Part shown: piece after piece, positions 1-64,000 of the stretch
Position numbering within the stretch: position 1 is the stretch's first letter
How the letters are laid out: every line of letters begins with the position of its first letter
Origin: a virus
Direction: 5' to 3' (one strand)
IMG/VR virus record: IMGVR_UViG_3300044729_001198
Span: 122,632-186,631 of that record
Length of the DNA: 64,000 bases
The notes under the pieces: generated by a model
What the model was told of the DNA's origin: nothing
The model's database searches: none
The model's input: the letters and a program-made list of their open reading frames with translations, nothing else
Translations under genes and position numbers: made by a program

Positions 1-407
1 ACAAATGCAGGTTTATTAGTTACTCCTCCAAAAAAAGGAACATCAACATCGTTATGACACAAGACACCATCGCTATCTATTAGTTGTTTATAAAACCAAG
101 CCATAGATGTAAATGACTCATCTTGCCAGTCCCATTGAATACTTTCTTGCATCACATAAACTTTTCCACAGAAAGGCTTTATTTTTTGAATTAAATCAAC
201 TTGATTTATAGCAAGATGCTCTCTATTCTTTTCTTTTGGTATAATCACAATACCAACATCTATGAAATATGGAATTTCCGGCGTATTAAAGATTGGGATG
301 TGAATTGCATCTAAAGCACATACCCAAGCTTGGTCAGTTCTCATATTTGGATTATTTCGTGGAACTTTTCCAAAGTAACCACCTTCAGTAAAAAATGCTA
401 TTTTCAT
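1..407 (-). CDS. Partial CDS (runs off window), probable glycosyltransferase-related protein
   Basis: Manual translation from ATG at 407: MKIAFFTEGGYFGKVPRNNPNMRTDQAWVCALDA..., open to the window edge; ATGA overlap with the stop at 404; MKIAFF start is typical of GT-B enzymes; glycan cluster context. Confidence 0.55.
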   Translation of the reverse strand, partial: MKIAFFTEGGYFGKVPRNNPNMRTDQAWVCALDAIHIPIFNTPEIPYFIDVGIVIIPKEKNREHLAINQVDLIQKIKPFCGKVYVMQESIQWDWQDESFTSMAWFYKQLIDSDGVLCHNDVDVPFFGGVTNKPAF

Positions 408-973
408 ATGTGTTGTAATGTAGTGTAATAATTTGTAACATTCGGATGAAAGTAACTAACTTTACAATCAAATAAGGATTCATCGAGATATACAACTCCA
501 CCACAACCACTTATATATTCGGTTGCTGAAAAATGTTTACATATGTCTGCAAGCCGTTGTGAGCTTGACGATGTGATTCCTAACTCTGATGACCTGACCA
601 TGGGTGTTGTTATACCCAATGCAGTTCTACAATATTCAATACTAGCAATGTTTACGTCAACGAGAGAAGTGTGTGAGTATATATCTGAAAAGTCTATTCC
701 AAAATTGGTTTGTAACTTATTTAGGATTACACGTTTCCATTTTGGATTTTGACTAACGAAAATATCCTTGATTAGTTTTGAATTTGCGTGTTGTTCCAAC
801 TCAATAGTAAACCATTCATCTACACCATTTTTATTAAGAAACTTATTTCGATTCTGAAAGTTATTTTTTGTGTATTGAACATCGTCTAAAATTACAAATA
901 AGTCAGCCGATTCCATTTTTTGAAAGAATCCCATGTAGGGGAAATGTTCAGGTTGATGTATTGTTATTTTCAT
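404..973 (-). CDS. WbqC-like family protein
   Basis: N-terminal IHQPEHFPYMGFFQKM..D.FVILDDVQY and YISG.GG..YLD motifs of the WbqC family. Confidence 0.85.
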   Translation of the reverse strand: MKITIHQPEHFPYMGFFQKMESADLFVILDDVQYTKNNFQNRNKFLNKNGVDEWFTIELEQHANSKLIKDIFVSQNPKWKRVILNKLQTNFGIDFSDIYSHTSLVDVNIASIEYCRTALGITTPMVRSSELGITSSSSQRLADICKHFSATEYISGCGGVVYLDESLFDCKVSYFHPNVTNYYTTLQHI

Positions 974-1587
974 CGAGATAATACCATTAAAAAGTCAAAT
1001 TTTGATTTGTGTATTAAGGTAACATTTTCAGTTACCGATAAGGCAATCTCTAATGTAGATGATGGTGAGAAATACTCAATATTAGTGCTTCTTATAGAAG
1101 CCCATGTGCTTGGAAAATTTACCATAACAACATCAGAACAATCATACATACATTGTAGATATTCTTTTAATTTAGTTGGATGGTCAGCAGGTCCCCCTTG
1201 ATTTCCAGCAACTCCAGATGAGATTGCTAAATCATACTTTTTGTTAATCTTTGATTCTAAAATATCCGATACCTCAAACGAATGTTCTTTGTAATTTTCA
1301 GATGCAATTTTAACAAACTCATCATTTATATCAATACCATGATATGACTTACAATTATAACCAAAATCAAAGAAAGAACCCCAGCCACAACCAAATTCAA
1401 TAATTGACTTATCCGAAAACGGAATAATTGAATTCATAGCATCATATCTAAACTTCGCAGAAGTGCCATCAGCTGACCCCCATGTCAGAGACCTATAGTC
1501 TCCAACTCCATATGTTTTTAAAGACTCAGCGTACCAAGTCATCATTCTTTCACGTTGATTCATATTTAAACAATTATAGAAACCCAA
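970..1587 (-). CDS. Class I SAM-dependent methyltransferase
   Basis: IIEFGCGWG motif I, YHGIDIN motif II, KYDLAISSG. Confidence 0.8.
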   Translation of the reverse strand: MGFYNCLNMNQRERMMTWYAESLKTYGVGDYRSLTWGSADGTSAKFRYDAMNSIIPFSDKSIIEFGCGWGSFFDFGYNCKSYHGIDINDEFVKIASENYKEHSFEVSDILESKINKKYDLAISSGVAGNQGGPADHPTKLKEYLQCMYDCSDVVMVNFPSTWASIRSTNIEYFSPSSTLEIALSVTENVTLIHKSKFDFLMVLSR

Positions 1588-2252
1588 TCTACCTTACCAA
1601 TATACGAATTAATTTTATAACATCCAAGCCCACCAACAATTTTATGTAAGGGAATGTATGGTTCTCGTTTAGAATGGTCGGTGAAATACATACCACGAAG
1701 CCACGAACTTTCATTACCAATTAAATTAACACCAGCGTTCTTTATTTCGTTTGCCAAATCCACTCTCTTTATAAGATTAGATTGAATTGTTGGTTTTAAC
1801 TCATCAAACGTATATAGTGGTAAATCCATCATTTTATTTGAAAATACAAACCCACCTCTACCAAAGTTTAACCATTTGGATTTATTTGTAGATGAGACCA
1901 CAATGTCAGCATATTTACCCAACCCAACCAGACCATGACATTGACTTAAATCTTCGATTATTTTTAAAGACGTGTGTTCTCTTATGGTTTTAACATCAGC
2001 TCTGATACCAAACATATGTGGTATGATGATAGTATCATAGTCGTCAGCAACACTTAACACATCTTTGACATCAATTTGTAGGTCAAAATCACAATCAGAC
2101 AAGTAGTAATCACAATTGGTTTGTGTAACTGCTGTCAATATGTCAGTGCAAGTGTAGGATGGTATAATTACTTTTTTAGAATCTAACTCTTTCAAAGCAA
2201 TTATTAAAGCATCCGTACCGGATTTAGTTTGATATGTATATTTTTTATACAT
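1566..2252 (-). CDS. DegT/DnrJ/EryC1/StrS-like PLP aminotransferase (short form)
   Basis: SGTDALIIAL, VIIPSYTC, IIIPHMFG, IIEDLSQCHG, K.L..G.GG motifs; only 228 aa. Confidence 0.75.
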   Translation of the reverse strand: MYKKYTYQTKSGTDALIIALKELDSKKVIIPSYTCTDILTAVTQTNCDYYLSDCDFDLQIDVKDVLSVADDYDTIIIPHMFGIRADVKTIREHTSLKIIEDLSQCHGLVGLGKYADIVVSSTNKSKWLNFGRGGFVFSNKMMDLPLYTFDELKPTIQSNLIKRVDLANEIKNAGVNLIGNESSWLRGMYFTDHSKREPYIPLHKIVGGLGCYKINSYIGKVDWVSIIV

Positions 2253-2902
2253 TAGCGAACAATTTTTAAAACATTAAACGCTTCAGCATATTTAACACCC
2301 GACTGACTACCTCTGAATTTTGCTAATGTTTCAAGATTGGATATCATATCAAATCCATGACATTTGAATTTTTCTATCTGACTCCGGTGTTTTAGACACC
2401 CTTGAAGTTTGTAGTCAAATGACTCTGTGATATCAACATAATAGTTAGCTACAGGATATGTCGTAGTAATTCTTGGAAGTGGGACTTGTTCATAACAAAG
2501 TACATTTTTAACCAAACGGCCAGCAGCCATTGTAGCAGAAAGAGTATTAATGTGGTCTTGATGAGTATCACCACCCCAATGGGTATAGATAATATCTATA
2601 TTACGTTCTTTAATGATTTTTTCAAGGAACGCTACTGATTGATTATCAAATGGAACTTTAGTATCTTGAAATGGTCCAAGAATTAATTCAGCACCAATTA
2701 CATCAGCAGCCAATTTTGCTTCAATAATACTTTGAGAACTATCTCGTGTTACTTCTTGAGTATGAGCATCTTTAACATCACTTTGGGTCATTACAACCAT
2801 AGTCACATTATCACCATCATTGGTGTGTTTTTTTAGTGTGCCAAAACACCCAAATTCAATATCATCGGGATGAGCACCGATTGCTAAAATATTATAAGAC
2901 AT
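2252..2902 (-). CDS. PIG-L/LmbE family N-deacetylase
   Basis: LAIGAHPDDIEFG, IYTH...D.HQDH motifs; start moved to ATG at 2902 (MSYNILAIG). Confidence 0.85.
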   Translation of the reverse strand: MSYNILAIGAHPDDIEFGCFGTLKKHTNDGDNVTMVVMTQSDVKDAHTQEVTRDSSQSIIEAKLAADVIGAELILGPFQDTKVPFDNQSVAFLEKIIKERNIDIIYTHWGGDTHQDHINTLSATMAAGRLVKNVLCYEQVPLPRITTTYPVANYYVDITESFDYKLQGCLKHRSQIEKFKCHGFDMISNLETLAKFRGSQSGVKYAEAFNVLKIVR

Positions 2903-3857
2903 CTTTCCAACCTTTAAATTTATAATATGGGTGAAATAAATTAGCAAGATTTTGACTACTTGCTTCATAAGCCTTCTTATACCAAGAATGTTGTTCTCTT
3001 AACAAGCCCGTGTTTGTTGGGTCTATACCAACCTCACCTAAAACATTTTTACGCTTCGAATGGTGTTTTCTATTATGAACTAACAAAATATTTCTGATAA
3101 CATATTGTGGTATATTACCCAACAATTTTTGGGTCATCATCATAAACGCGGTATCTTCATGTACAAAGAACATACCTTTAGGAATATTAGCACCTGATTT
3201 GATAACTTCCGATGATATTACTAACCCACACCCGTTAAATTTATGTTGTGGTAAAACTACAACATCTAAATTTTCAGTTTCTTCATTTATAGAATCCATT
3301 TCGGATTCAGACATGGTGTAGCGTAATGACCACCAATTTTCAGTATCACCTTCTATAAAAGGTTTGGTTGTGAATTTCGGATGTTCCAATAATTTCCAAG
3401 AATCATCCCACATTTTACACCCACCAAAGAACGAAAGGTATTTTGGAGTTTGGTCTTTAACTTGCTGATGTAATTGGTCAAGTATAACGAACATTTGTTT
3501 TGGAGCCAGCATATCAGACTCACCCCAAATCAGAACATCAGCCGACTCACAATATCTTTCATTAAAATCCCTACGATAGTCTGCGATTGAATATAAGGTT
3601 GAGTGAGTTGTTATGTTTACAGAATAACCATCACGTTTCATATATTCAAATTCCGTGATTATTTTATTTAAAACCCATTCAAATTCATAATCTTTACCAT
3701 CAAATTTTTCAAGAAGTTGATTTGTAATCAATGCAAAGTCTACTTGTACTTTTGATTTATCATACAATTTTATAGAAGAGCGAATTGATGAGATATACTC
3801 ATCAATAATTTTCACCTCATACCATTGTACTAAACATCCTATAGCAAACTTTGTCAT
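2892..3857 (-). CDS. Putative GT-A fold glycosyltransferase
   Basis: VLIWGESD, FNGCG, FVHED and late H motif; cluster context. Confidence 0.45.
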   Translation of the reverse strand: MTKFAIGCLVQWYEVKIIDEYISSIRSSIKLYDKSKVQVDFALITNQLLEKFDGKDYEFEWVLNKIITEFEYMKRDGYSVNITTHSTLYSIADYRRDFNERYCESADVLIWGESDMLAPKQMFVILDQLHQQVKDQTPKYLSFFGGCKMWDDSWKLLEHPKFTTKPFIEGDTENWWSLRYTMSESEMDSINEETENLDVVVLPQHKFNGCGLVISSEVIKSGANIPKGMFFVHEDTAFMMMTQKLLGNIPQYVIRNILLVHNRKHHSKRKNVLGEVGIDPTNTGLLREQHSWYKKAYEASSQNLANLFHPYYKFKGWKDVL

Positions 3858-52634: not shown

Positions 52635-53798
52635 TTATCCTATATAAATTGCTCTTGGAACTCTAGCAAGTGTTGATTCTAAAAATTCAGCCTCATCACG
52701 TTTTGCTTCCATTAATGCTCTTTTTGAAACGGCTTCCAAAGTTTCTTTTAACTCGGTTAATAGATTTTCTTTTTCAGTAGAAGCCTCACCTCTTAAATCA
52801 GCACCATCTAAAGTAACATCAGCCCCAGGAATTGGAATAGCGGAGAATTTAGCTCTAACAGCACCCAACATTTCTTTAGCCAATGCTAATGTGTATTTAG
52901 TAATCCATTGTCTACCAGCAGCGTTAATATCTGAATATAACAATCTCAAGAACGGAGCGTTTGATAAATCACTAACAACATTTGATGCCATTGCAGGATT
53001 ATTACCTTCACTATTTCGTGTATATTCAAAGTACACTTTTGTTCCAGTATCAGTTGATGTTGGTAATGGGAAAATCTTAATACGATTATTAACTAATTGG
53101 AATGAGTATTGTGATTTACGAATTTGGTCATTAAATTCAATTGCTTGTAAACGAAGTAAATCATCATACATCGGTTGCATCATAAACGATACGCCTGGTG
53201 AGTAATTACCCCATCCAAAAGTCTCCATCATTTGTTGTGAACCAAGACCAGTTCCGACAAATGGGTCAAAATAACGAGTAATTGCAGGAGGCGCCTCATG
53301 AAACACCTTACGGATTGTAAGACCATCGGAAACTGAACCAGATTCAAGTGATACTACACTTGCATTCTTTAAATCATAAATTTGTTCACCACCAACTAAC
53401 GTAAATGAACCTGTATAGTATGTTAATCTACCACCACTCTTTGCTTCAGTACCATAATCTTTTGCGATATTCACAACAGAACTCAAATTAGAATTAAGTT
53501 GTGTATTTCGTAAGTCAGCTGAAATGTTTGACCCTTGTAGTGAGAGCATACTTTCTCTCGTTCTATATAGGTTAACTTGTGATGAGTATTCATTGGTAGC
53601 TTCTTCAAAACAAGCAAAAAAGTTTATATCTTGTAATTCAATATCAACGATGGGATATCCCAGTCGTTTTGCGCACCACCCAGCCACCTTTGGAGCATCT
53701 GACCTGAATTGTGAATCAGAATCAAAAAATCCGAAAGGAGTGGAACTTCCACTTGTGAATGTCGCTGCGCCTGTCCAAATTGGTATGTTAACTGCCAT
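52635..53798 (-). CDS. Neck/head-tail adaptor (gp13-like)
   Basis: RLGYP..DIEL, WI..YTLAL.KE.LG..R.KF..IP.PG..VTLDG. Confidence 0.75.
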   Translation of the reverse strand: MAVNIPIWTGAATFTSGSSTPFGFFDSDSQFRSDAPKVAGWCAKRLGYPIVDIELQDINFFACFEEATNEYSSQVNLYRTRESMLSLQGSNISADLRNTQLNSNLSSVVNIAKDYGTEAKSGGRLTYYTGSFTLVGGEQIYDLKNASVVSLESGSVSDGLTIRKVFHEAPPAITRYFDPFVGTGLGSQQMMETFGWGNYSPGVSFMMQPMYDDLLRLQAIEFNDQIRKSQYSFQLVNNRIKIFPLPTSTDTGTKVYFEYTRNSEGNNPAMASNVVSDLSNAPFLRLLYSDINAAGRQWITKYTLALAKEMLGAVRAKFSAIPIPGADVTLDGADLRGEASTEKENLLTELKETLEAVSKRALMEAKRDEAEFLESTLARVPRAIYIG

Positions 53799-53827
53799 TT
53801 AAAAACTCCATAAGGGTGTTATCTCTA

Positions 53828-53835
53828 TATAAATA
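53828..53835 (-). promoter_or_regulatory. Putative late motif TATTTATA upstream of the neck genes
   Basis: Recurs at 36372, 46558, 47951, 48541, 50936, 51270, 58131. Confidence 0.6.
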
Positions 53836-53845
53836 GTAACACACT

Positions 53846-56212
53846 CTATCTTTCACTATTTTTCATAAAAGATACGATAATATAACGAGTTCCGTTTGTT
53901 ACGGCTCTAGCACCATGTTTGTGAGTTATGTTTCCAGGGTGTATAGTACAATATCCAATTGGTGATTTTACTAATTGTTTTTGTCTTCTAAACCAAGTAC
54001 CACCACCATCATATTCGTCTAAATCTGAAAGTTGTACAAGACAAGTTATGTCGGATGAGTCGTGGTGTATAGACAAGTGTCCTTGTGCATTTGGGGTATA
54101 TTTAGCCAAAAAGTTTTCAGATTGCATAGAAGTCCAACCCCGACCCTCAAGGGCCCAAATGTAAGTCGAAAACTTCATAACATATTCACGGAGAACATCC
54201 ATATAAATGTCATTCATGTCAATCACATTTAATAACATATCGGTTGTTGGGTAATTTTCATGCCTATCAACAGTCCAAGAATTAGCGTATTCGGCCTCTT
54301 CACGAATCATTCTACAAAACTCTTCAGTAAACAATGGAAATGTAAAACAATTATCAAATGGTTCATCGGTTATCAAATCCCATTCTTGTGTTCTAGCGGA
54401 ATATGATATAAATCTATTTTTCCATTCAATTGGGTTTTCATAATAAGTGTAAAGTTCGGGATGTAATTTCATGTTTAAATGAATAGTTTCGGTTGTAGAT
54501 TTTATTTGACTATGACCTTGACTTATTAATTGTGTTCTTAATGAGTAAGCATTTACATCTGACTCAATAGAGTTTAAATCATTTCGATTTGGATGTATTG
54601 AATATGTACATATGAAAAATTCATCTAATGGTATAATATTGTTTTGTAAGTTTTTACTCAACATTTTTTCTATACCATTTTTACTCAACATATAAGCATG
54701 GGTGTTGTAAGATGGATATGGTTTTACAATTTCACCCAAACCGATTTCAACATCATCTCCCGGTGACAATTTATTTCTACCAAGATACATCAAGTCCCAA
54801 TCGGATGGTAGGTCATCTATGATATATGGGGATAACTGACCATGAACCATGAAGTCCTCTTCAAGAACCAATATATTTTCATGACCACTTTCTTTTGCAA
54901 GATTCCAAACTTGGAGATGTGATAAAGCACAACCAATCTCTCCGGGCAGAATAGGTCTATTATACCATTTATTTGTAGATTCTATTTTCCAATTGGTAAA
55001 TACTGACCAATCTCCATCGTAAATATTTAAATTACTACCATCAACTGCTCTATGAATATGAATAACGCTTCGAGGGTCTAATCCTAATTTATTAATTTCA
55101 GAAACCCACCTATCGTAGTTATTAAAATTCTCGGATAACCCAATCACATATACACAATCTATTTTGGTGTATCGCTTTGGTTCATCTATCACACTATACC
55201 ACTCATTAACACGAACATCCCATGTATTTTTTAAAGCATATTCTCTTGCGTTTTTTAAATTGGTTTGTTGTAGTGATTTGTTATTGTGTAAATCCACAAA
55301 TGCTTCAAAAAACTCATTATTTGATGCATTATGACTTACAAGTTTAGCTTTACCATTTAATAGATTCAAAAGATTACCGGAATCAGTTGATACTATTTTT
55401 ACACCACCAAACATCATTTCAAGAGCAGTTATACAATAGGTTTCTTCATACTGACTTGGATATAACCAATATTCAGCCGAATTTATCAAATTGTATAATT
55501 CCATTTTCCCCAAAGCGCCAATAAAATGAACCCCTTCTAAAACTTGTTGATAAGAGTCATAAACATCCAATGCATATGGTGGGGTTGCTACCCATAAGGT
55601 AGCGTCTGGTAACATATTCTTTATGTTTGGCCAGATTTCTAATAGATTTGACAAACCACGTTCAGCTGATGATGTATACACAAACTTATTTGGGACTTTA
55701 TCAACCGAATTCATTAAAAAATCAGTCGTTGATATTGCGTTTGGTATTACACGAATACGACCTCTCATTTGTGGATATTTTTTTTCTAAAATGGCGGCCT
55801 GATATTCAGATACACAAATGAAGTTAGTTATTTCTAAACTTGATAAGTAGCCCAACCCATCATTCTCTAAAGTAACACCATTCCACCATGGATAAAAGTC
55901 AAGATTATGTAACCAAAAATATGATTTATCAAAGGTTATATTTCTTGATTTCAATTCTACTAAATAGTGTATATAATTTGTGGCAATTACAACATCGTAT
56001 TGTGAATTTGATTCCAATTCGCTGTATTCACAATATTTGACATTATCTATTGTAGAACTTATAAGGTCACCACATATGGTAACGTCATGGGAACGTGCCA
56101 TAATTTCTGCAAGTTTCATTACAGCATATTCCGACCCACCGATACCATTTTCGTACCAAGTGTTCCAATTCCATTTTTCTTTTTGATATCCTACTACAAA
56201 TAATATTTTCAT
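53846..56212 (-). CDS. Tri-domain enzyme: GT4 + GT25 (COLGALT-like) + PLOD-like 2OG-Fe(II) lysyl hydroxylase
   Basis: GIGGSE, YTSS..RGL, ET.CI.A.E (GT4); AVDG, GEIGCALSH, VLEED, WDLMYLGR (GT25); FPLFTE, YPT.D, HHDSS, GGGT.F, HPG..TH.H, GTRYI.VSF (LH). Confidence 0.85.
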   Translation of the reverse strand: MKILFVVGYQKEKWNWNTWYENGIGGSEYAVMKLAEIMARSHDVTICGDLISSTIDNVKYCEYSELESNSQYDVVIATNYIHYLVELKSRNITFDKSYFWLHNLDFYPWWNGVTLENDGLGYLSSLEITNFICVSEYQAAILEKKYPQMRGRIRVIPNAISTTDFLMNSVDKVPNKFVYTSSAERGLSNLLEIWPNIKNMLPDATLWVATPPYALDVYDSYQQVLEGVHFIGALGKMELYNLINSAEYWLYPSQYEETYCITALEMMFGGVKIVSTDSGNLLNLLNGKAKLVSHNASNNEFFEAFVDLHNNKSLQQTNLKNAREYALKNTWDVRVNEWYSVIDEPKRYTKIDCVYVIGLSENFNNYDRWVSEINKLGLDPRSVIHIHRAVDGSNLNIYDGDWSVFTNWKIESTNKWYNRPILPGEIGCALSHLQVWNLAKESGHENILVLEEDFMVHGQLSPYIIDDLPSDWDLMYLGRNKLSPGDDVEIGLGEIVKPYPSYNTHAYMLSKNGIEKMLSKNLQNNIIPLDEFFICTYSIHPNRNDLNSIESDVNAYSLRTQLISQGHSQIKSTTETIHLNMKLHPELYTYYENPIEWKNRFISYSARTQEWDLITDEPFDNCFTFPLFTEEFCRMIREEAEYANSWTVDRHENYPTTDMLLNVIDMNDIYMDVLREYVMKFSTYIWALEGRGWTSMQSENFLAKYTPNAQGHLSIHHDSSDITCLVQLSDLDEYDGGGTWFRRQKQLVKSPIGYCTIHPGNITHKHGARAVTNGTRYIIVSFMKNSER

Positions 56213-56213
56213 G

Positions 56214-57506
56214 CTATTTCACTATGTAATTTAAAACTTGTTCACTCTCACCAAATTTTGTATAATCCATATCATCTTGAAATTTCCAAGAATGGCCATC
56301 GGACTCATTCCAACACCAATCATCTTTTCCAAGCTCAAGGATTCGTTGATGAATAAATGGGTCGTAATAATCTTTTATTAATCTAGCCCTACGATTAATA
56401 TCGGTTGAATTATTATCTACTGTCGAATCACCATTATTATATTGTACATATAACATTTTTTTAAGGTGAATTATTCTTGTATGTAAAAATGTCTTTACAA
56501 TTAATTCAAAATCATCAGCTACCGAAATATCTCTACTATGTCCTCTGATTTCTGAATATGTATCTCGTCTCCAAATACGGCAATGGTTTGGCATACCAAT
56601 ATTGAATCGTATTGATTTCGGATTTATATCAGGATAATGGTGTACCAACCAATCTTGACCATCAATATTTTGCCATGTGTGTCCTGCATAACCCCAATCA
56701 AATTTATTTTCCGGATGACCATACCAATCGTCACCTATATAACCATATTGACGTGGTGCTCCATTTTCATAAACCTCGGTTACATCCGTATATATAAATC
56801 CAGCATCTTCATGTTGCCATGAGGCATGTAATACTTCTTGTAAACAAGTTGTTATCAAAGTGTCATCATGGTCAAGTTCTACTAACCACTCACCATTACA
56901 TAACATGGCAGCTCTATGTTTAACCTCACCAACATTACCACCACTATTTGGTGACATTCTATATGGTTTTACTCTATAATCTTCGTCAGCTATAGTTTTT
57001 AGATATTCCCACGTTTTATAATCACCTTCAGGTGAATCATCAACGACCACCCATTCCCAATTTGGATACGTTTGGTTTTTTAAAGATTCATATGTTCTGA
57101 ATATACGTTCGTTGGTTTTGTACGTTGGTGTGAAGATTGAGAATATAGGCGTTTCTCTATTTCCAAATACTTCTTTTTGAGACCTACAAGCCCAAAACGT
57201 TGATTGACATACAATATCATTTGCAAGAACATTGTCAGCTGGAATTTCAGTATATGTAAAAACTTTTGACATCACAAATGTATGGCTGGTGAATTGATAA
57301 ACTTGTCCATTTCCCGGCCCAATTAATATAATGATGTCCGGCTTATGTTTAGCAAAATCTGATTTAAAATTACAAGCACAATCGTATGAATATATTTTTA
57401 CAAATTCATATAAATTTTCTTCGTGATATACATCAGATTTTAGTGTTATCTCACCAAATCTATTCCAACCATAAACCAAAGCAGTTGGCAAACTCGTTTT
57501 TCTCAT
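56214..57506 (-). CDS. GT2 glycosyltransferase with N-terminal extension
   Basis: FSIFTPTY, WVVVDDS, VELDHDD, ADDFEL; start set to MRKTS. Confidence 0.82.
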   Translation of the reverse strand: MRKTSLPTALVYGWNRFGEITLKSDVYHEENLYEFVKIYSYDCACNFKSDFAKHKPDIIILIGPGNGQVYQFTSHTFVMSKVFTYTEIPADNVLANDIVCQSTFWACRSQKEVFGNRETPIFSIFTPTYKTNERIFRTYESLKNQTYPNWEWVVVDDSPEGDYKTWEYLKTIADEDYRVKPYRMSPNSGGNVGEVKHRAAMLCNGEWLVELDHDDTLITTCLQEVLHASWQHEDAGFIYTDVTEVYENGAPRQYGYIGDDWYGHPENKFDWGYAGHTWQNIDGQDWLVHHYPDINPKSIRFNIGMPNHCRIWRRDTYSEIRGHSRDISVADDFELIVKTFLHTRIIHLKKMLYVQYNNGDSTVDNNSTDINRRARLIKDYYDPFIHQRILELGKDDWCWNESDGHSWKFQDDMDYTKFGESEQVLNYIVK

Positions 57507-57507
57507 A

Positions 57508-58113
57508 TTATCTATATGGTTCTCCACCAACCCAAAGTACAAATGATTTACGAGTACCTTTAGTTACGGGTTTGACTCTATGTAAATAAAAAGATGGGAA
57601 TATCACAACAACACCCTTACCCCTTGGAGCTTGAGTGGCTCCAGCTCCCAACATAAATTCTAAATCACCACCCTCATACTCATCTGGACCTGAAAGTTGA
57701 ACTGTTACTGATACTTTTCTTTGATTCTGAATTCCAATACCACAATCCATGTGCCAATCGTAGTGACCACCACCTTCGTAATATTCGGTATATTGAATCC
57801 GTTCTCGCATATGAGTCAAATCAAGTTTCCACATAAATTGATTTGCTTCAGAAATCATATTATGTAATTTAGAATACACCCATTCCCACTTTTCATTTTG
57901 TGGACACCATTTTACTGATGATTTTCGATAAGTCTCATTCTTTCGGCTAACGTTGTCTTGACCAATAGCAGCTTCTTCAAACTTTAAATCTGAAGTCAAT
58001 TCTTCGATGGTCTTCAACTCTTCAGGTGTAAACCCTTCGTGAAACCAATAATAATTTGTGTAATTCACATCCAAACGATGTGGGTCTCGGTCAAATTTAA
58101 ATCCATTTTCCAT
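57508..58113 (-). CDS. 2OG-Fe(II) dioxygenase (prolyl-hydroxylase-like)
   Basis: YDWHMD, RK.S..VQLS....YEGG.L, FPSF..HRV.PVT.G.R.S.V.W. Confidence 0.88.
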   Translation of the reverse strand: MENGFKFDRDPHRLDVNYTNYYWFHEGFTPEELKTIEELTSDLKFEEAAIGQDNVSRKNETYRKSSVKWCPQNEKWEWVYSKLHNMISEANQFMWKLDLTHMRERIQYTEYYEGGGHYDWHMDCGIGIQNQRKVSVTVQLSGPDEYEGGDLEFMLGAGATQAPRGKGVVVIFPSFYLHRVKPVTKGTRKSFVLWVGGEPYR

Positions 58114-58130
58114 AACTTATATTCTTTTAA

Positions 58131-58138
58131 TATAAATA
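58131..58138 (-). promoter_or_regulatory. Putative late motif TATTTATA upstream of the oxygenase-GT2-GT/LH cassette
   Basis: Intergenic; same motif as other late sites. Confidence 0.6.
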
Positions 58139-58153
58139 TGGAATCTAAACTTA

Positions 58154-61100
58154 TTAGAACAAATATTTGTAAGTTTCTACAATCCAAACACGGTCACCAT
58201 TTACCCAACCATGTTTTTTGAATGTTAATTTTTGTAAAGAATTATCCCACTCAAAATAACCACCAGCAAGTTCATTACCCTTATCGCCTTTTGCATTTGT
58301 ACCACCTTGAGCGCCTTGGTTACCTTGACCCCCAACAGCACCATCATACGTTCCTTCAGGAGCAGCGGGAGCGGAACTTCCTTGAGCTCCAGTAATACCC
58401 TTTACACCTTGAGCTCCTTGAGCGCCAGTAGCACCAGCAGCACCTTGAGCACCTTGGTGACCTGTATTTCCCTTTGTACCTTGAGCGCCTTGAGGACCAG
58501 TAGCACCAGCAGCACCTTGAGCGCCTTGGTTACCCTTTGTACCAACAGCACCTTGAGCACCTTGAGCGCCGGTAGCACCTGCGGAACCCTGAGCTCCTTG
58601 AGCACCAGTAGCTCCTTGAGCTCCTTGAGCGCCAGTAGCACCAACAGCACCCTGAGCGCCTTGGTTACCCTTTGTACCAACAGCACCTTGAGCACCTTGA
58701 GCGCCGGTAGCGCCCGCAGCACCTTGAGCGCCGGTAGCGCCCTTTGAACCAGTAGCACCTTGAGCCCCTTTTGTTCCATGGATACCGTTAGGAGTTTCAG
58801 TTATGGATAGGCCTGTGAAATATCTCCAAGCGCCGGTTGTTCCTGATGGAGCATATCCAACGTACCAATGATGTTCTCCGGTTGCGTCTGCTGTGGACGT
58901 AAATGAATATTTCTTTCTATACCATGTTAGTGTAGTACCAAGTTCGGATGAATATAAATCTTTTTGGTCTATAATTGTTCCATCTTCTACACCAGTAGAA
59001 AAGTGACCACCACCACTAGCAAATTGCCTCATGTGGAACATACCATAATTTGCACCACTACCAGCCCAGTTTACATCGTAAGCTACCCAAATTTCAAGGG
59101 TATATGCAGTAGATGGTTTTACAAAAAATTCAGTAACTTGATATTCAGCAGCACCAGAGCTATCTTGTCGAAGTACATAAGCAGAATTAGCCGATTGTGG
59201 ATTATTAGATAATCCAAATGCTTGAGTAGTAGCATTATGACCCGTATAATACAAGTCTATATTGTTAGCAGCACCAATTGCAGCAAAGTTAGGGTCTAAC
59301 ACTTTATTACCAGCATAACCTTGAGCACCTTGAGCACCTTGGTTACCGGTGTTTCCTTTAGGACCTGTAGCACCTGCGGCTCCTTGAGACCCCTGATTAC
59401 CTTGTGCTCCAACATTTCCGGTTGAACCAATACCACCACCTGAACCAATAAGTCCGGTAGCCCCTTGAGCACCTTGTGAGCCGGTAGCCCCTTGAGCCCC
59501 AGTAGCACCTGCGGCTCCTTGAGCACCCGTAACTCCAGTAGCACCCGTATTTCCTTTTGGTCCAGTAGCACCTGCGGCCCCTTGAGAACCAGTAGCACCC
59601 TGACCCCCACCTACACCTGTATTTCCTTTAGCACCCGTAGCACCAGCAGCTCCTTGAGAACCAGTAGCACCTTGAGAACCTTGAACACCCTTGTTTCCTT
59701 TAGCACCAGCAGCACCACCACCACCACAATAGAAATCTAAATAGGTGTTATTATTTGATGTACCATATGTAGCATTATCACACGTTAAATTTGTAAGAAC
59801 AATTGTGAATCGCTGATTACCTGAATCATATGTATTGGATACAACTTGGAATTCACCAAATGCTGGGTCTGGAAATCCTTGACCAATATCAAGTCTACAT
59901 CCATTATTTACCGTGATTAAATATGAATATCTATCCGTACTGGTAAACCAAGAATATCTACTAACAACTATAGTAGTTAGTGAACATGAATTTGTGTTAT
60001 TAAATGATATTTGACCAGTACCAACCGCACCGGAAGTTGCTTGCCAATAAGTTGATAAGGTAGTTGGTGTTGTTCCCGGAGCACCTTGAGCACCGGTAAT
60101 TCCTTTAGGGCCCGTAGCACCTGCCGCTCCTTGAGACCCCTGATTACCTTGTGCTCCAATGGTTCCAGTAGGACCAACTCCCCCACCCGAACCAATAAGT
60201 CCGGTAGCACCTTGAGAACCTTGTGGGCCGGTGGCTCCTTGTGGACCAGTAGCACCAGCAGAACCTTGTGAACCGGTAGCTCCTTGTGGGCCGGTAGAAC
60301 CCGTGTTTCCTTTAGGACCTGTAGCACCAGCAGCTCCTTGAGAACCTTGAACGCCAGTAGCACCTTTCGGACCTTGAGCGCCAGTAGCACCTGCCGCTCC
60401 TTGAGGACCTGCGTTACCTTGAGCACCTATAGCACCAGTAGCACCCGTATCACCACTTCCACCTAAAATACCTTTTGAACCTTGTGGACCTGTTGCTCCC
60501 GTACTTCCTTTTGAACCAGTATCACCAGTAGCGCCTTGTGGACCTTGAGGGCCGGTTGGGCCTTGAGGGCCAGTTGGGCCGGTTGGGCCTGTATTACCTT
60601 GAGAACCAATCGGACCTAATGCACCTGACCTACCAAGTTCAGATGTATATTGATACCAAGTACCACCACCCGATTCAGATGGACGTTTCCAAAAGACTCT
60701 CATACCTTCACCACCACCATATTCTTGAGTTCTTACCAAAAATGAATAAGCAGTGCCAGCGGTTAATGAAATTGTACCTGTAGTTGTTCCCAATGCTGGA
60801 GTACCTCTACCACCATAAAATGATGCTACAATAGTTCCATTAATAAATAAATCAATTGAGTCATCGGATTCCGCTGTAAAAGTATATGTTCCGGTTTCGG
60901 ATGGTATAAACGTCCCCCAAGCTCTAACGGAAAAGAATTCACCTGAATTTGGAACACTTACCCCAGCACCAGTCAATGTAGTATAGGATGTCCAATCAAG
61001 AATTGTTGCGGCATTTACAATACCTTGTGAGTGTAATGTTGAATTTGTATATGCAGCATCGAAGAACTTACCAAAGTCATTTGAGTTTGTTGGATAAACA

Positions 61101-63622
61101 CCATATTGTGATGTAGAACCATTTCCGGCATGAGTTGACCATACTTGATAGTTTAAAGTAGCAGAACCAAACGCAGTACCCTTTTGACCTTGTGGGCCAG
61201 TACCACCTTGAGCACCCGTTGCGCCAGTAGCTCCTTGTGGGCCAGTAGCCCCTTGTGGGCCAGTAGCCCCTTGAGCTCCAGTAACACCAATATCTCCCTC
61301 TCCACCAGTAGTACCAACAGCACCTGTAGTTCCTTTTGCACCCGTACCACCTTGAGCGCCCGTTGAGCCGGTAGCACCTTGAGGGCCGGTAGCACCTTGA
61401 GGACCTTGAGGGCCAGTAGCTCCTTGAGGACCTGTAGCTCCTTTATTACCCTGTGGACCTTCACCACCTTGACCACCAGTAGCACCAGTAGTTCCTTTTG
61501 AACCAGTCCCACCTTGTGGACCTTGTGGGCCAGTTCCACCTTGTGGGCCGGTGGCACCTTGTGGGCCGGTGGCACCTGTAGAACCTTGAGCGCCGGTAGC
61601 ACCTGTTGGACCAGTACCACCTTGTGGACCTTGTGGACCAGTACCACCTTGAGCTCCGATAGCCCCTTGAGCTCCAGTAGCACCTTGTGGGCCAGTTGGC
61701 CCAGTACCACCCTGAACGCCTTGAGAACCTTGTGGGCCGGTAGCCCCCTGTGCTCCTTGAGCTCCTTGGTCACCAGTTATACCAATAGCACCATAATTGT
61801 TACACCACTTTACATCTTGTACAGCAGCATTACCTGAATAAAACGATGAATCTAAATAGAATGTTGCGCCAGCACCATGGTTTACACTTCGTCTGATAAC
61901 ACCATCTAAAATATAATGTACATACTGACCATCGTAGTATATAGCAAATGTAGTTACACCATTTGTGTATCCAAATGATAAATCGGTTACAAAGTTACAA
62001 CTCTCATAAATTTGAACACCACCACCGGCATATGGATACCATGCGTAATCTATAGAACAATAAGAAGCATCAGCAGCAGGGTCGGTATTTAAACCAACCA
62101 TTTTATATGTGTAGTTTGTAGATTTAAATTCTACATATGCGCCAGCGCCATATCCTAAATCAGAATATACACCACCACCCCAAGAACCAGCACCTTGTTT
62201 TGCAAATGATTGAACAGCTGTATTGTTGTTTGTTATTGCGACTGCTTGTCCGTTGTTAGTTGATGGATACGAACATCCCTCATATCCTTGTGGACCGGTA
62301 GCTCCTTGTGGACCAGTAGCGCCAGTACCACCTTGTGGACCGGTAGCACCAGTAGCACCTTGTAACCCCTCTCCACCGAAATCACCTTGTACGCCAGTTG
62401 GGCCTGTAGCACCGGTGGCGCCTTGTGGGCCTGTAGCACCTTGTGGGCCAGTAGGGCCTCCGTTACCACCAAATCCGGTGATACCTTTCGGACCTTGTAC
62501 ACCAATTTCACCTTGTGGTCCGGTTGCTCCAACTGCTCCGGCTGGACCCGTAGAACCACCACTACCTTTAGTACCCTTGAGACCAGCAGGCCCTAAAGCA
62601 CCTTGAGCACCAACAGCACCGGTTGGTCCCGGAGGTCCTCCAGAACCACCAACACCTACAGCACCTTGAGCTCCCTGCGGGCCGTTTGCTCCTTTTGGAC
62701 CAACAGCACCTTGAGAACCGCGTGAACCGGTTGGACCTGTAGAGCCGGTAGCACCCTTTGCGCCAGTAGCTCCAGTTGGACCAGTACCACCTTGTGGACC
62801 AGTACCACCTTGTGGGCCAGTAGGACCGGTATTACCCGTAATACCTTTTGAACCTTGAGGGCCGGTTGGACCTGTCGATGTATCAGGGTCACCACTTGGA
62901 CAAGCACCACAACCACCACCGAAACAAGATTGAACGTTACCATCGATATTACCACCGTTATTATAACCTGGAGGTATACCATCGAAACGGCCAAATTCTT
63001 GAACTTGATAGCAACATCCATCATCCATAGTGACAGCATCACCACAAGCACACCAATTGTCTATAGCATAATATTGAGCGGTAGAATTACTATCATATAC
63101 GTTTGAACAACCCGGGTCACATGCGTTTAATAGCCAATAACACGTTGAATTATGTACTATATATCCATTCAGTATATAAACGTCATCTGGTTCTATACCA
63201 ATTTTATGTAAGATTTCTGAATTAGTATCAGTATATGCGTCTTCGAGTAATTCTTCTGATAAAGAACCACTTTCATATTTTATTAGATAGTCACTACCTA
63301 CTTGTAAATCTTGTGATGATTTGAATCTATATGTGTTGGTAGAATCTTTTACAAGAATTTTTTTACCATATCCAACTGATAACGAGTCGTTGAATACCGC
63401 AAATTCTTCAGCAGTAGAACCACTTGTATTAAATACAACTGAAGCTGAAGTTATCTGAATTTCACTTAAAGAGGAACCTGTCCAATTTGTTGAAGATATT
63501 TCAGAAAAGTCAGTTCCAGATAAATGGACTGCTGTTACTAAAGTTCCTGTGGTAATGTTCTGAAGTTGTTCAGAACCACCACCCCATAAATTGACTAATT
63601 GATTCCCTTTAAATCCTGACAT
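58154..63622 (-). CDS. Giant collagen-like fibre protein with N-terminal Hint domain, Cys-rich segment and interspersed globular (PA14, lectin/CBM-like) domains
   Basis: Five G-X-Y blocks; PA14 F..R..G......G.YTF...SDD...L.I; Hint C-terminal block LNGYIVHN|S. Confidence 0.88.
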
Positions 63623-63635
63623 ATAACCTTTTTAA

Positions 63636-64000
63636 TTAGTATGCTGAACCACTTAAATACATATGAACCACATATGTGTTTCCACCATTGTTAAATGTTA
63701 AATACCCACGAGTTGCGTTCCACGAAAGTCCCGGAGATACACCACTAATCAAAGTACCAAGAGCAGCATCGCCCTTTTGACCTTTAGCACCTTGAGCGCC
63801 GGTAGCGCCGGTAGCACCTTGAGCTCCTTGAGCTCCAGTAAAGTTTGAACCAACAGCGCCTTGAGCTCCTTGAGGACCTACAGCACCTTGAGCACCTTGA
63901 GGTGAAGCACCTTGAGCGCCAGTAGCACCTTGAGCACCTTGAGCACCAACAGCACCTTGAGCGCCAGTAGGAGATGCTCCTTGAGCGCCAGTAGCACCTT
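63636..64000 (-). CDS. 3' end of a second collagen-like protein (partial)
   Basis: Manual translation [14 protein letters not shown]...[12 protein letters not shown]...[29 protein letters not shown]; stop at 63636-63638. Confidence 0.85.

Follow-up and report, generated by a model that had tools for sequence, protein, structure and literature searches.

A candidate module for hydroxylating and glycosylating collagen lysines, encoded beside the fibre genes of a T4-like aquatic myovirus

Can a tailed bacteriophage hydroxylate and glycosylate the lysines of its own collagen-like fibres? The question is raised by a 64,000-nucleotide stretch of a viral genome (IMG/VR record IMGVR_UViG_3300044729_001198, record positions 122,632 to 186,631; hereafter the window), which forms the final 64 kb of a 186,631 bp record judged 98% complete. 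Every gene of the region of interest lies on the minus strand. In its 5' to 3' direction this strand carries, one after the other, two collagen-like genes, a promoter-like motif, a gene for a 2-oxoglutarate (2OG) Fe(II) oxygenase of 201 amino acids (here called OX201), a GT2 glycosyltransferase gene, a gene for a 788 amino acid fusion of GT4, GT25 and lysyl hydroxylase (LH) domains, the neck genes and the tail sheath gene. Analysis of open reading frames (ORFs) and Pfam domains confirmed what a first-pass annotation of this DNA had described, namely two collagen-like genes, a motif at position 58131, three close-packed enzyme genes and then the neck genes.

Hydroxylysine-linked glycosylation of collagen is held to be a chemistry of animals and giant viruses. 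Excerpts of a review of giant-virus glycans report that both activities of mimivirus L230 were shown on collagen peptides, call the protein the first collagen-glycosylating enzyme outside animals, and state that it transfers Glc despite its resemblance to GLT25D1 (PMC9614988). A 2022 review, in the excerpts available, describes phage collagens as short and unmodified, and most bacterial collagens as unmodified too (PMC8968730). Our search of the literature outside subscription journals yielded no paper describing collagen-lysine hydroxylation or glycosylation in tailed phages, which agrees with the statement in the first-pass annotation that no characterised phage example was known to its author. 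Given the homologies, catalytic residues and gene linkage observed here, we consider it likely that this T4-like aquatic myovirus encodes a module that hydroxylates and glycosylates collagen lysines of its own fibres.

A PLOD-type lysyl hydroxylase fused to glycosyltransferases

The fusion gene occupies positions 53846..56212 (minus strand), and its C-terminal LH domain (residues 575-788 plus the stop codon) positions 53846..54490. In a search of the PDB, residues 581-783 matched human LH3/PLOD3 (6fxk) over the whole length of the LH domain with an E-value of 9e-31, and the same domain matched mimivirus L230 (6ax6) at E 2e-19; the next-ranked 2OG oxygenase was PiuC, at an E-value of just 0.15. 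Among 1.84 billion cluster representatives the LH domain has 2243 relatives at E <=1e-3 and 85 at E <=1e-30, and an animal PLOD1, that of Lingula anatina, falls within the best 150 matches (E 8e-23). Across 22 aligned homologues, residues H716, D718, H766 and R776 never vary; the first three correspond to the iron triad and R776 to the 2-oxoglutarate arginine, and the HHDSS and H...R segments align with those of LH3. From these alignments we take the C-terminal domain of the fusion to be a true PLOD/L230 homologue, with 5-hydroxylation of lysine in X-Lys-Gly as its predicted activity.

The GT25 domain (residues 345-580; positions 54473..55180) matches PF01755 with 41.6 bits (cut-off 24) and human COLGALT1, procollagen galactosyltransferase 1 (9evj), with an E-value of 1e-13, the motifs reading EED against EDD and LDEF against VDEF. 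The GT4 domain, of the GT-B type (residues 1-345; positions 55178..56212), matches PF13692 (Glyco_trans_1_4) with 40.9 bits against a cut-off of 27 and PF00534 with 31.7 bits, while PF13439 reaches 27.0 bits and stays under its cut-off of 28.5. In the alignment of 22 homologues E257 and E265 are nearly invariant, and we take these two conserved glutamates of the C-terminal half to be the E-x7-E motif. The separate GT2 enzyme (442 amino acids; positions 56214..57542) matches PF00535 at E 4e-16 and has a DHDD motif in the aligned region, its N-terminal 130 residues being without family assignment. Its start is either the TTG at 57542, which gives the 442 amino acids, or an alternative ATG at 57506; most relatives align from residue 12-15.

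The collagen-like fibre genes

The second collagen-like gene (positions 58154..63622) encodes 1822 amino acids, matches Pfam Collagen at E 1e-96 over 14 stretches, and contains 297 Gly-X-Y triplets in six runs with globular inserts between them. The window holds only the last 120 codons of the first (positions 63636..64000, coding 63636-63998; Pfam Collagen E 6e-8), which continues across the record junction at record positions 2-3190, where its N-terminal part matches Pfam Collagen at E 5e-100. Both record ends fall within a collagen repeat some 198 bp long, and the final 99 bases of the record occur again at record positions 187-285. Circular permutation of the genome is probable, and the assembled length of the first gene may not be its true length. 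Counting runs of at least four Gly-X-Y, the two genes together have 608 triplets; no other collagen-like ORFs occur in the 186.6-kb genome.

Two further features of these proteins may be mentioned. A PA14 carbohydrate-binding domain (E 1e-9; positions 60674-60943, residues 894-983) sits between collagen runs of the second protein, and the fibre may bind glycans through it. Both proteins start with a globular domain of about 150 amino acids (window positions 63149-63622; record positions ~2700-3136, minus strand) that ends in VHN followed by S or T immediately ahead of the first Gly-X-Y run. In the first protein this N-terminus gives a sub-threshold match to PT-HINT (E 2.5e-4; 21.7 bits, cut-off 27.7), which suggests that the N-terminal domains could be self-cleaving, Hint-like prodomains.

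Over the 608 triplets there are 35 lysines at Y and none at X. In the second gene the Y position is taken by Thr 103 times, Gln 102 times, Lys 27 times and Pro twice, with Lys again missing from X. Threonine is at Y in 103 of its 297 triplets and in 125 of the 290 triplets of the record-start part of the first gene; over these 587 triplets Thr (228) and Gln (219) dominate the position. Proline is found at X 133 times in the 608 triplets and at Y in three, and in the collagens of relatives at Y in 42 of 17,912. X-Pro-Gly sites are thus nearly lacking, and the canonical prolyl 4-hydroxylation of a collagen prolyl 4-hydroxylase system would have almost no substrate, while X-Lys-Gly sites do exist.

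Linkage to collagen within the myovirus lineage

Database relatives of the fusion protein number 444 at E <=1e-5. Some share its three domains and measure about 790 amino acids; the others, which are more common, are GT4-LH proteins of about 558 amino acids that have no GT25. A relative is encoded at 384 loci of IMG/VR, of which the best 80 were analysed. These 80 represent one phage lineage; neck and sheath are present, the sheath being 68-94% identical. The gene order in the lineage is collagen, OX201, GT2, GT4(-GT25)-LH, neck. Taking as collagen-like any ORF with at least 12 triplets, we found one upstream on the same strand at 69 of the 80 loci, the remaining 11 having at most 1.6 kb of upstream DNA; downstream, such an ORF was found at none of the 80. 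The neck gene adjoins the fusion gene at all 80 loci. OX201 is present in 71, GT2 in 65 and GT25 in 5 of them, and GT2 is truly missing from nine loci, in which OX201 abuts the fusion gene. GT2 and GT25 are therefore dispensable in the lineage, and the core consists of collagen, OX201 and GT4-LH.

The collagens of these relatives repeat the bias in lysine placement. Counted over 89 different collagen ORFs of the lineage (17,912 triplets, all from LH-carrying loci), lysine occurs 4495 times at Y against 89 times at X, and arginine shows the reverse, with 31 at Y and 385 at X. The residue that follows a Y-position lysine and its glycine is Asn in 1744 of the 4495 cases, Lys-Gly-Asn being the commonest context in the lineage, and it may be a recognition motif. 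Lys-Gly-Asp/Glu salt bridges were considered as a reason for lysine at Y and rejected for this lineage, where that context shows no enrichment (8% against a background of 9%); it is enriched in the fibres of two other phage groups described below, the CRP-6-like phages (34%) and the cyanophages (30%). In the GT25-carrying loci with upstream DNA (four, plus this window), lysine stands at Y in about 6-9% of triplets (25% in one short fragment), against 25-32% in the GT4-LH forms; the set of transferases may be linked to the density of lysine sites.

The same association in other phage backbones

Distant matches among isolated phages led to the Roseobacter phage CRP-6 and the Synechococcus phages S-8S53, S-CAM9 and S-PRM1. 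Their enzyme of about 600 amino acids combines a GT25 domain, a PLOD GT domain (PF25342, E 5e-28 and 2e-47) and an LH domain, and its gene lies 0.4-1.5 kb 3' of a collagen-like tail fibre gene with 55-99 triplets and 22-26 lysines at Y. In CRP-6 the collagen-like fibre gene is separated from the GT25-GT_PLOD-LH gene by the gene for gp59, which has a phage tail assembly chaperone domain, and by this position the enzyme sits inside the fibre assembly module.

The CRP-6-like phages are small, and of their 197 loci in IMG/VR 80 were kept. A collagen-like ORF lies upstream in 68 of these, and in all 51 that have more than 3 kb of upstream DNA, although two of the 51 have only 12-24 triplets. Lysine in the CRP-6-like fibres occurs 1178 times at Y and 3 times at X. 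The loci gave no matches to the neck, sheath or GT2 proteins of the phage studied here, so the CRP-6-like backbones are unrelated to it. Overall, an L230-like protein was found in only 11 of the 50,697 phage records. None of the phage forms observed (GT4-LH, GT4-GT25-LH, GT25-GT_PLOD-LH) has LH without a fused transferase. Automatic names in the ESM Atlas also label some Uroviricota clusters as lysyl hydroxylase/glycosyltransferase, with scores <0.9, which we treat as a lead only. The claim of the first-pass annotation that the phage hydroxylates and glycosylates its own collagen fibres thus gains comparative support, both from the homology to LH and COLGALT1 and from the linkage to lysine-rich collagen in three unrelated backbones.

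The second oxygenase

OX201 (positions 57508..58113) matches PF13640 (2OG-FeII_Oxy_3) with 54 bits and PiuC (9ghl) with an E-value of 8e-10. Against NF003974 it scores 75.6 bits, under the 143-bit equivalog cut-off, and it does not qualify as a YbiX/PiuC equivalog; on these matches we assign it to the PKHD/PiuC superfamily and no further. The best 120 matches of a homologue search all come from the lineage of this phage, and a literature search on PiuC turned up nothing. OX201-like genes with 35-43% identity abut the LH gene in 24 of the 80 CRP-6-like loci, and one with 33% identity lies beside the LH gene in S-8S53, S-CAM9 and S-PRM1. The pairing of LH and OX201 therefore recurs in three backbones, those of the myovirus lineage, of the CRP-6-like loci and of the cyanophages. 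An uncultured phage of 735 kb also encodes such an oxygenase, 44% identical, and no collagen or LH gene lies within 10 kb of it.

The first-pass annotation had placed the second dioxygenase in parallel with the animal prolyl hydroxylases. In the canonical sense this parallel finds no support: OX201 as a canonical collagen prolyl 4-hydroxylase was rejected given that Y-position proline is nearly missing (3 of 608 triplets), and most phage homologues of OX201 occur without LH, as the record counts given below illustrate. X-position proline is one candidate target. Whether OX201 belongs to the fibre pathway at all is, in our judgement, a shade less than an even chance.

Weighing the evidence and its alternatives

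Several observations speak against a dedicated pathway for collagen lysines in this phage. Its own collagens are lysine-poor, with lysine in about 6% of triplets (35 of the 598 counted for this comparison) against about 25% in relatives, and threonine, at about 35% of Y positions, offers an alternative sugar acceptor of the kind seen in BclA. The GT2, GT4 and GT25 families are also typical of the synthesis of lipopolysaccharide (LPS) and exopolysaccharide. OX201-type oxygenases occur in 363 phage records against the 11 that have an L230-like enzyme, and the copies of P-SSM4, S-RIM14 and S-CAM1 (all three of the three examined) have no collagen ORF within 9 kb. Synteny in each of the three phage lineages is by descent, and the number of independent observations is therefore about three rather than about 150. 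Finally, LH domains are encoded at 17 bacterial loci (Granulosicoccaceae, Chromatiales, Aliishimia, Thiothrix and others), and no collagen-like ORF was found in the examined DNA of 16 of them, 13 with a full 10 kb upstream; the three contexts that are annotated consist of housekeeping genes.

The LH family therefore does not always have collagen genes as neighbours. The first-pass annotation had named the occurrence of the enzymes independently of collagen genes in relatives as a reason to abandon its proposal; such independence is what we see in bacteria (16 of the 17 loci), and not what we see in phages. The lone bacterial exception, which has a collagen-like ORF, is a phage-looking contig of 24 kb and 38% GC. 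The chromosomes of Aliishimia, Granulosicoccaceae and Thiothrix eikelboomii carry stand-alone GT4-LH or LH-only genes that are 42-67% identical to the phage domain. Elsewhere in the genome, Pfam Collagen matches were present in all five bacterial LH genomes searched against four of 14 controls, some of them lysine-rich at Y (Aliishimia, 64 of 158 triplets; Thiolinea, 36 of 137); in one LH genome the matches are dubious Gly-Thr-Asp repeats.

Might the enzymes have another target? The glycosyltransferases and the fused dioxygenase might remodel the host envelope, acting on the LPS O-chain or an exopolysaccharide, for example to block superinfection, and their place in the fibre region would then be incidental. 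Excerpts of a paper on pelagimyophages read the glycosyltransferases of the host-recognition, or fibre, region in this way, as LPS modifiers (PMC7029224). In NCBIfam the GT2 and GT4 parts come closest to polysaccharide enzymes, with every such score far under the cut-off, and bacterial GT4-LH homologues stand alone amid housekeeping genes. We regard such a role as highly improbable all the same, since the fused domain is one of the protein lysyl hydroxylases (LH3, E 9e-31), a family with no known glycan role, the GT25 domain matches the collagen galactosyltransferase itself, lysine-rich collagen is linked in three unrelated backbones, and the enzyme unit has the motif of structural genes. Hypermodification of phage DNA, in which a base would be hydroxylated and then glycosylated as by TET/JBP-type enzymes and glucosyltransferases, has a precedent in phages that pair 2OG dioxygenases with glycosyltransferases for that purpose (see also excerpts of PMC2938197). 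It was rejected, and we find it scarcely credible here: neither oxygenase resembles TET/JBP or AlkB structures, their matches being LH3/L230 and PiuC; the genes are flanked by fibre and neck genes within the structural block and follow the structural-gene motif; and the linkage to collagen would be left unexplained.

Closer to the pathway that we favour is a division of labour in which the fibre lysines are hydroxylated, the hydroxylysine serving cross-linking or hydration, while the sugars go elsewhere, with GT4 and GT2 acting on Y-position threonine, as in BclA of Bacillus, or on other virion proteins. Threonine is the commonest Y residue in both collagens of this phage (counts above) and is at Y in 4366 of the 17,912 triplets of the lineage; BclA-type collagen-like regions are glycosylated, according to excerpts of the 2022 review (PMC8968730); and relatives manage without GT2 (nine loci) and mostly without GT25 (five of 80 have one). 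Yet the transferase is fused to LH in all phage forms, which parallels L230 and LH3, whose fused transferase acts on hydroxylysine, and we think this division rather unlikely.

The pathway that we prefer, hydroxylation followed by glycosylation of the fibre lysines, would run as follows; its substrate, order of steps, sugars and benefit to the phage are what we infer from the comparisons above. The two giant collagen-like fibre proteins would be made late in infection together with the three enzymes, the latter as one transcription unit. Ahead of the winding of the triple helix, the PLOD-type domain, with Fe(II), 2-oxoglutarate and O2, would convert the Y-position lysine of Gly-X-Lys-Gly to hydroxylysine, and the fused glycosyltransferase domains would then add sugars to the new hydroxyl. 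The GT25 domain, related to COLGALT1 and to the transferase domain of L230, would place the first hexose, while extension of the glycan, or action at other sites, would fall to GT4 and possibly to GT2. In relatives without GT25, GT4 or GT2 would perform the first step. OX201 may carry out a second hydroxylation of the same fibres, and the end product would be glycan-coated fibres, which the modification may stabilise or shield, as the first-pass annotation suggested.

Gene order, expression signal and genome context

Between the three enzyme genes there is either a gap of 1 nt or an overlap. A promoter-like motif (TATTTATA, positions 58131..58138, minus strand) lies 25 nt before the start codon of OX201, in a 40-nt spacer behind the collagen genes. 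The recurring motif of the genome is TATTTAT[AT] and not the T4 late promoter TATAAATA. The number of copies in the window (16 found, 18.5 expected) is no higher than chance, and it is therefore only strand and position that single the motif out: across the genome there are 47 copies on the gene strand against seven on the opposite strand, and 35 of the 47 are intergenic, typically 10-60 nt before a start codon. Copies precede the neck, sheath, tube and portal genes, and from the genes that it precedes we regard the motif as a candidate late promoter. After the copy before OX201 the next one stands only ahead of the neck gene (positions 53828..53835, 37 nt before that gene), where it sets the limit of the enzyme unit. 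A search of positions 53700-64000 for terminator-like sites found none.

Downstream, the module is bounded by the neck gene (positions 52635..53798), which is head-tail adaptor-like (phrog_211, E 1e-12), and beyond it lie a T4 gp15-like gene and the tail sheath gene. On the other side, 5' of the first collagen gene in the record, are four more fibre-sized genes, PhoH and a gp23-type capsid gene. The GC content is about 35% overall and climbs to 45-49% across the collagen genes. The closest isolate is Microcystis phage Mel-JY01, whose sheath is 57% identical; in the 42 kb examined, Mel-JY01 has neither a collagen nor an LH gene, and its neck genes come directly after PhoH. The block of fibre and enzyme genes therefore gives the impression of having been inserted, at a position where T4 presumably carries its whisker and short-fibre genes. 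A megablast search with the enzyme region against 50,697 phage records gave no match.

Comparison with known systems

The nearest precedent is mimivirus L230, likewise a viral enzyme in which a single chain has a GT25-like transferase on the N-terminal side of a PLOD-type LH domain, from a virus that also encodes lysine-rich, proline-poor collagen-like proteins; transferase and LH in one chain, with co-encoded lysine-rich collagen-like proteins, are equally what the phage system offers. The host of this phage is, however, a bacterium, so that the reactions would take place in the bacterial cytoplasm, and the phage system is known from sequence. Unlike L230, the phage fusion has an extra N-terminal GT4 domain (GT-B), most phage relatives being GT4-LH without GT25, and the phage unit adds a separate GT2 and a PKHD-type oxygenase, with the enzyme genes directly 3' of the collagen genes.

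With the animal pathway of LH1-3/PLOD1-3 and COLGALT1 (6fxk, 8zgc, 9evj) the phage system shares the HxD...H...R residues, the GT25 match and a target lysine at Y. It differs in that the fusion has neither the PLOD GT domain, which is present in the CRP-6 and cyanophage forms, nor the accessory domain, in its other fusion partners, and in that there is no endoplasmic reticulum and, as Y-position proline is lacking, no 4-hydroxyproline system in the phage. What is new relative to both L230 and the PLOD-COLGALT pathway is the GT4 fusion, the extra GT2 and the second oxygenase.

The proteins of S-8S53, S-CAM9 and S-PRM1 and gp58 of CRP-6 are homologous in their LH and GT25 domains (26-30% identity), lie downstream of a collagen-like tail fibre with lysine at Y, and often have an adjacent OX201-like oxygenase. 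In these phages, however, the PLOD GT domain replaces GT4, GT2 is lacking and the backbones are others; the proteins are annotated as hypothetical or as 2OG-Fe(II) oxygenases, and excerpts of the CRP-6 paper mention neither collagen nor a hydroxylase (PMC6918029). OX201 matches PiuC/YbiX (9ghl, 3dkq) in the catalytic half and differs from them in its context, a phage fibre module. In excerpts of Iyer et al. (2010), bacterial beta-hydroxylases are predicted to modify collagen-like proteins, and the dioxygenase arrays of cyanophages are tied to secondary metabolites (PMC2938197).

Implications

In its widest form, the proposal would be that tailed phages, including very abundant marine lineages, run, in the cytoplasm of their bacterial hosts, a full pathway that hydroxylates and glycosylates collagen lysines, with GT4 and GT2 enzymes, which animals do not use, beside GT25 and with a second, PKHD-type hydroxylation. 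It would add that the LH/GT25/PLOD-GT fusions of phages and bacteria were the source pool of the PLOD and COLGALT enzymes of giant viruses and early animals, or that phages were the vehicle of their transfer. We put this forward tentatively, as an unlikely but consequential extension. The cultured phages CRP-6, S-CAM9, S-PRM1 and S-8S53 carry the module, and the idea that phages modify collagen lysines is therefore testable now.

If phages do modify their collagen lysines, a widespread class of phage fibre would be a glycoprotein, with consequences for host recognition, for resistance to proteases and for how sticky the fibres are in the sea. The compact enzymes, working in a bacterial cytoplasm, would be of use for making hydroxylated, glycosylated recombinant collagen, and the origin of the PLOD/COLGALT toolkit would become open to study in phages and bacteria.

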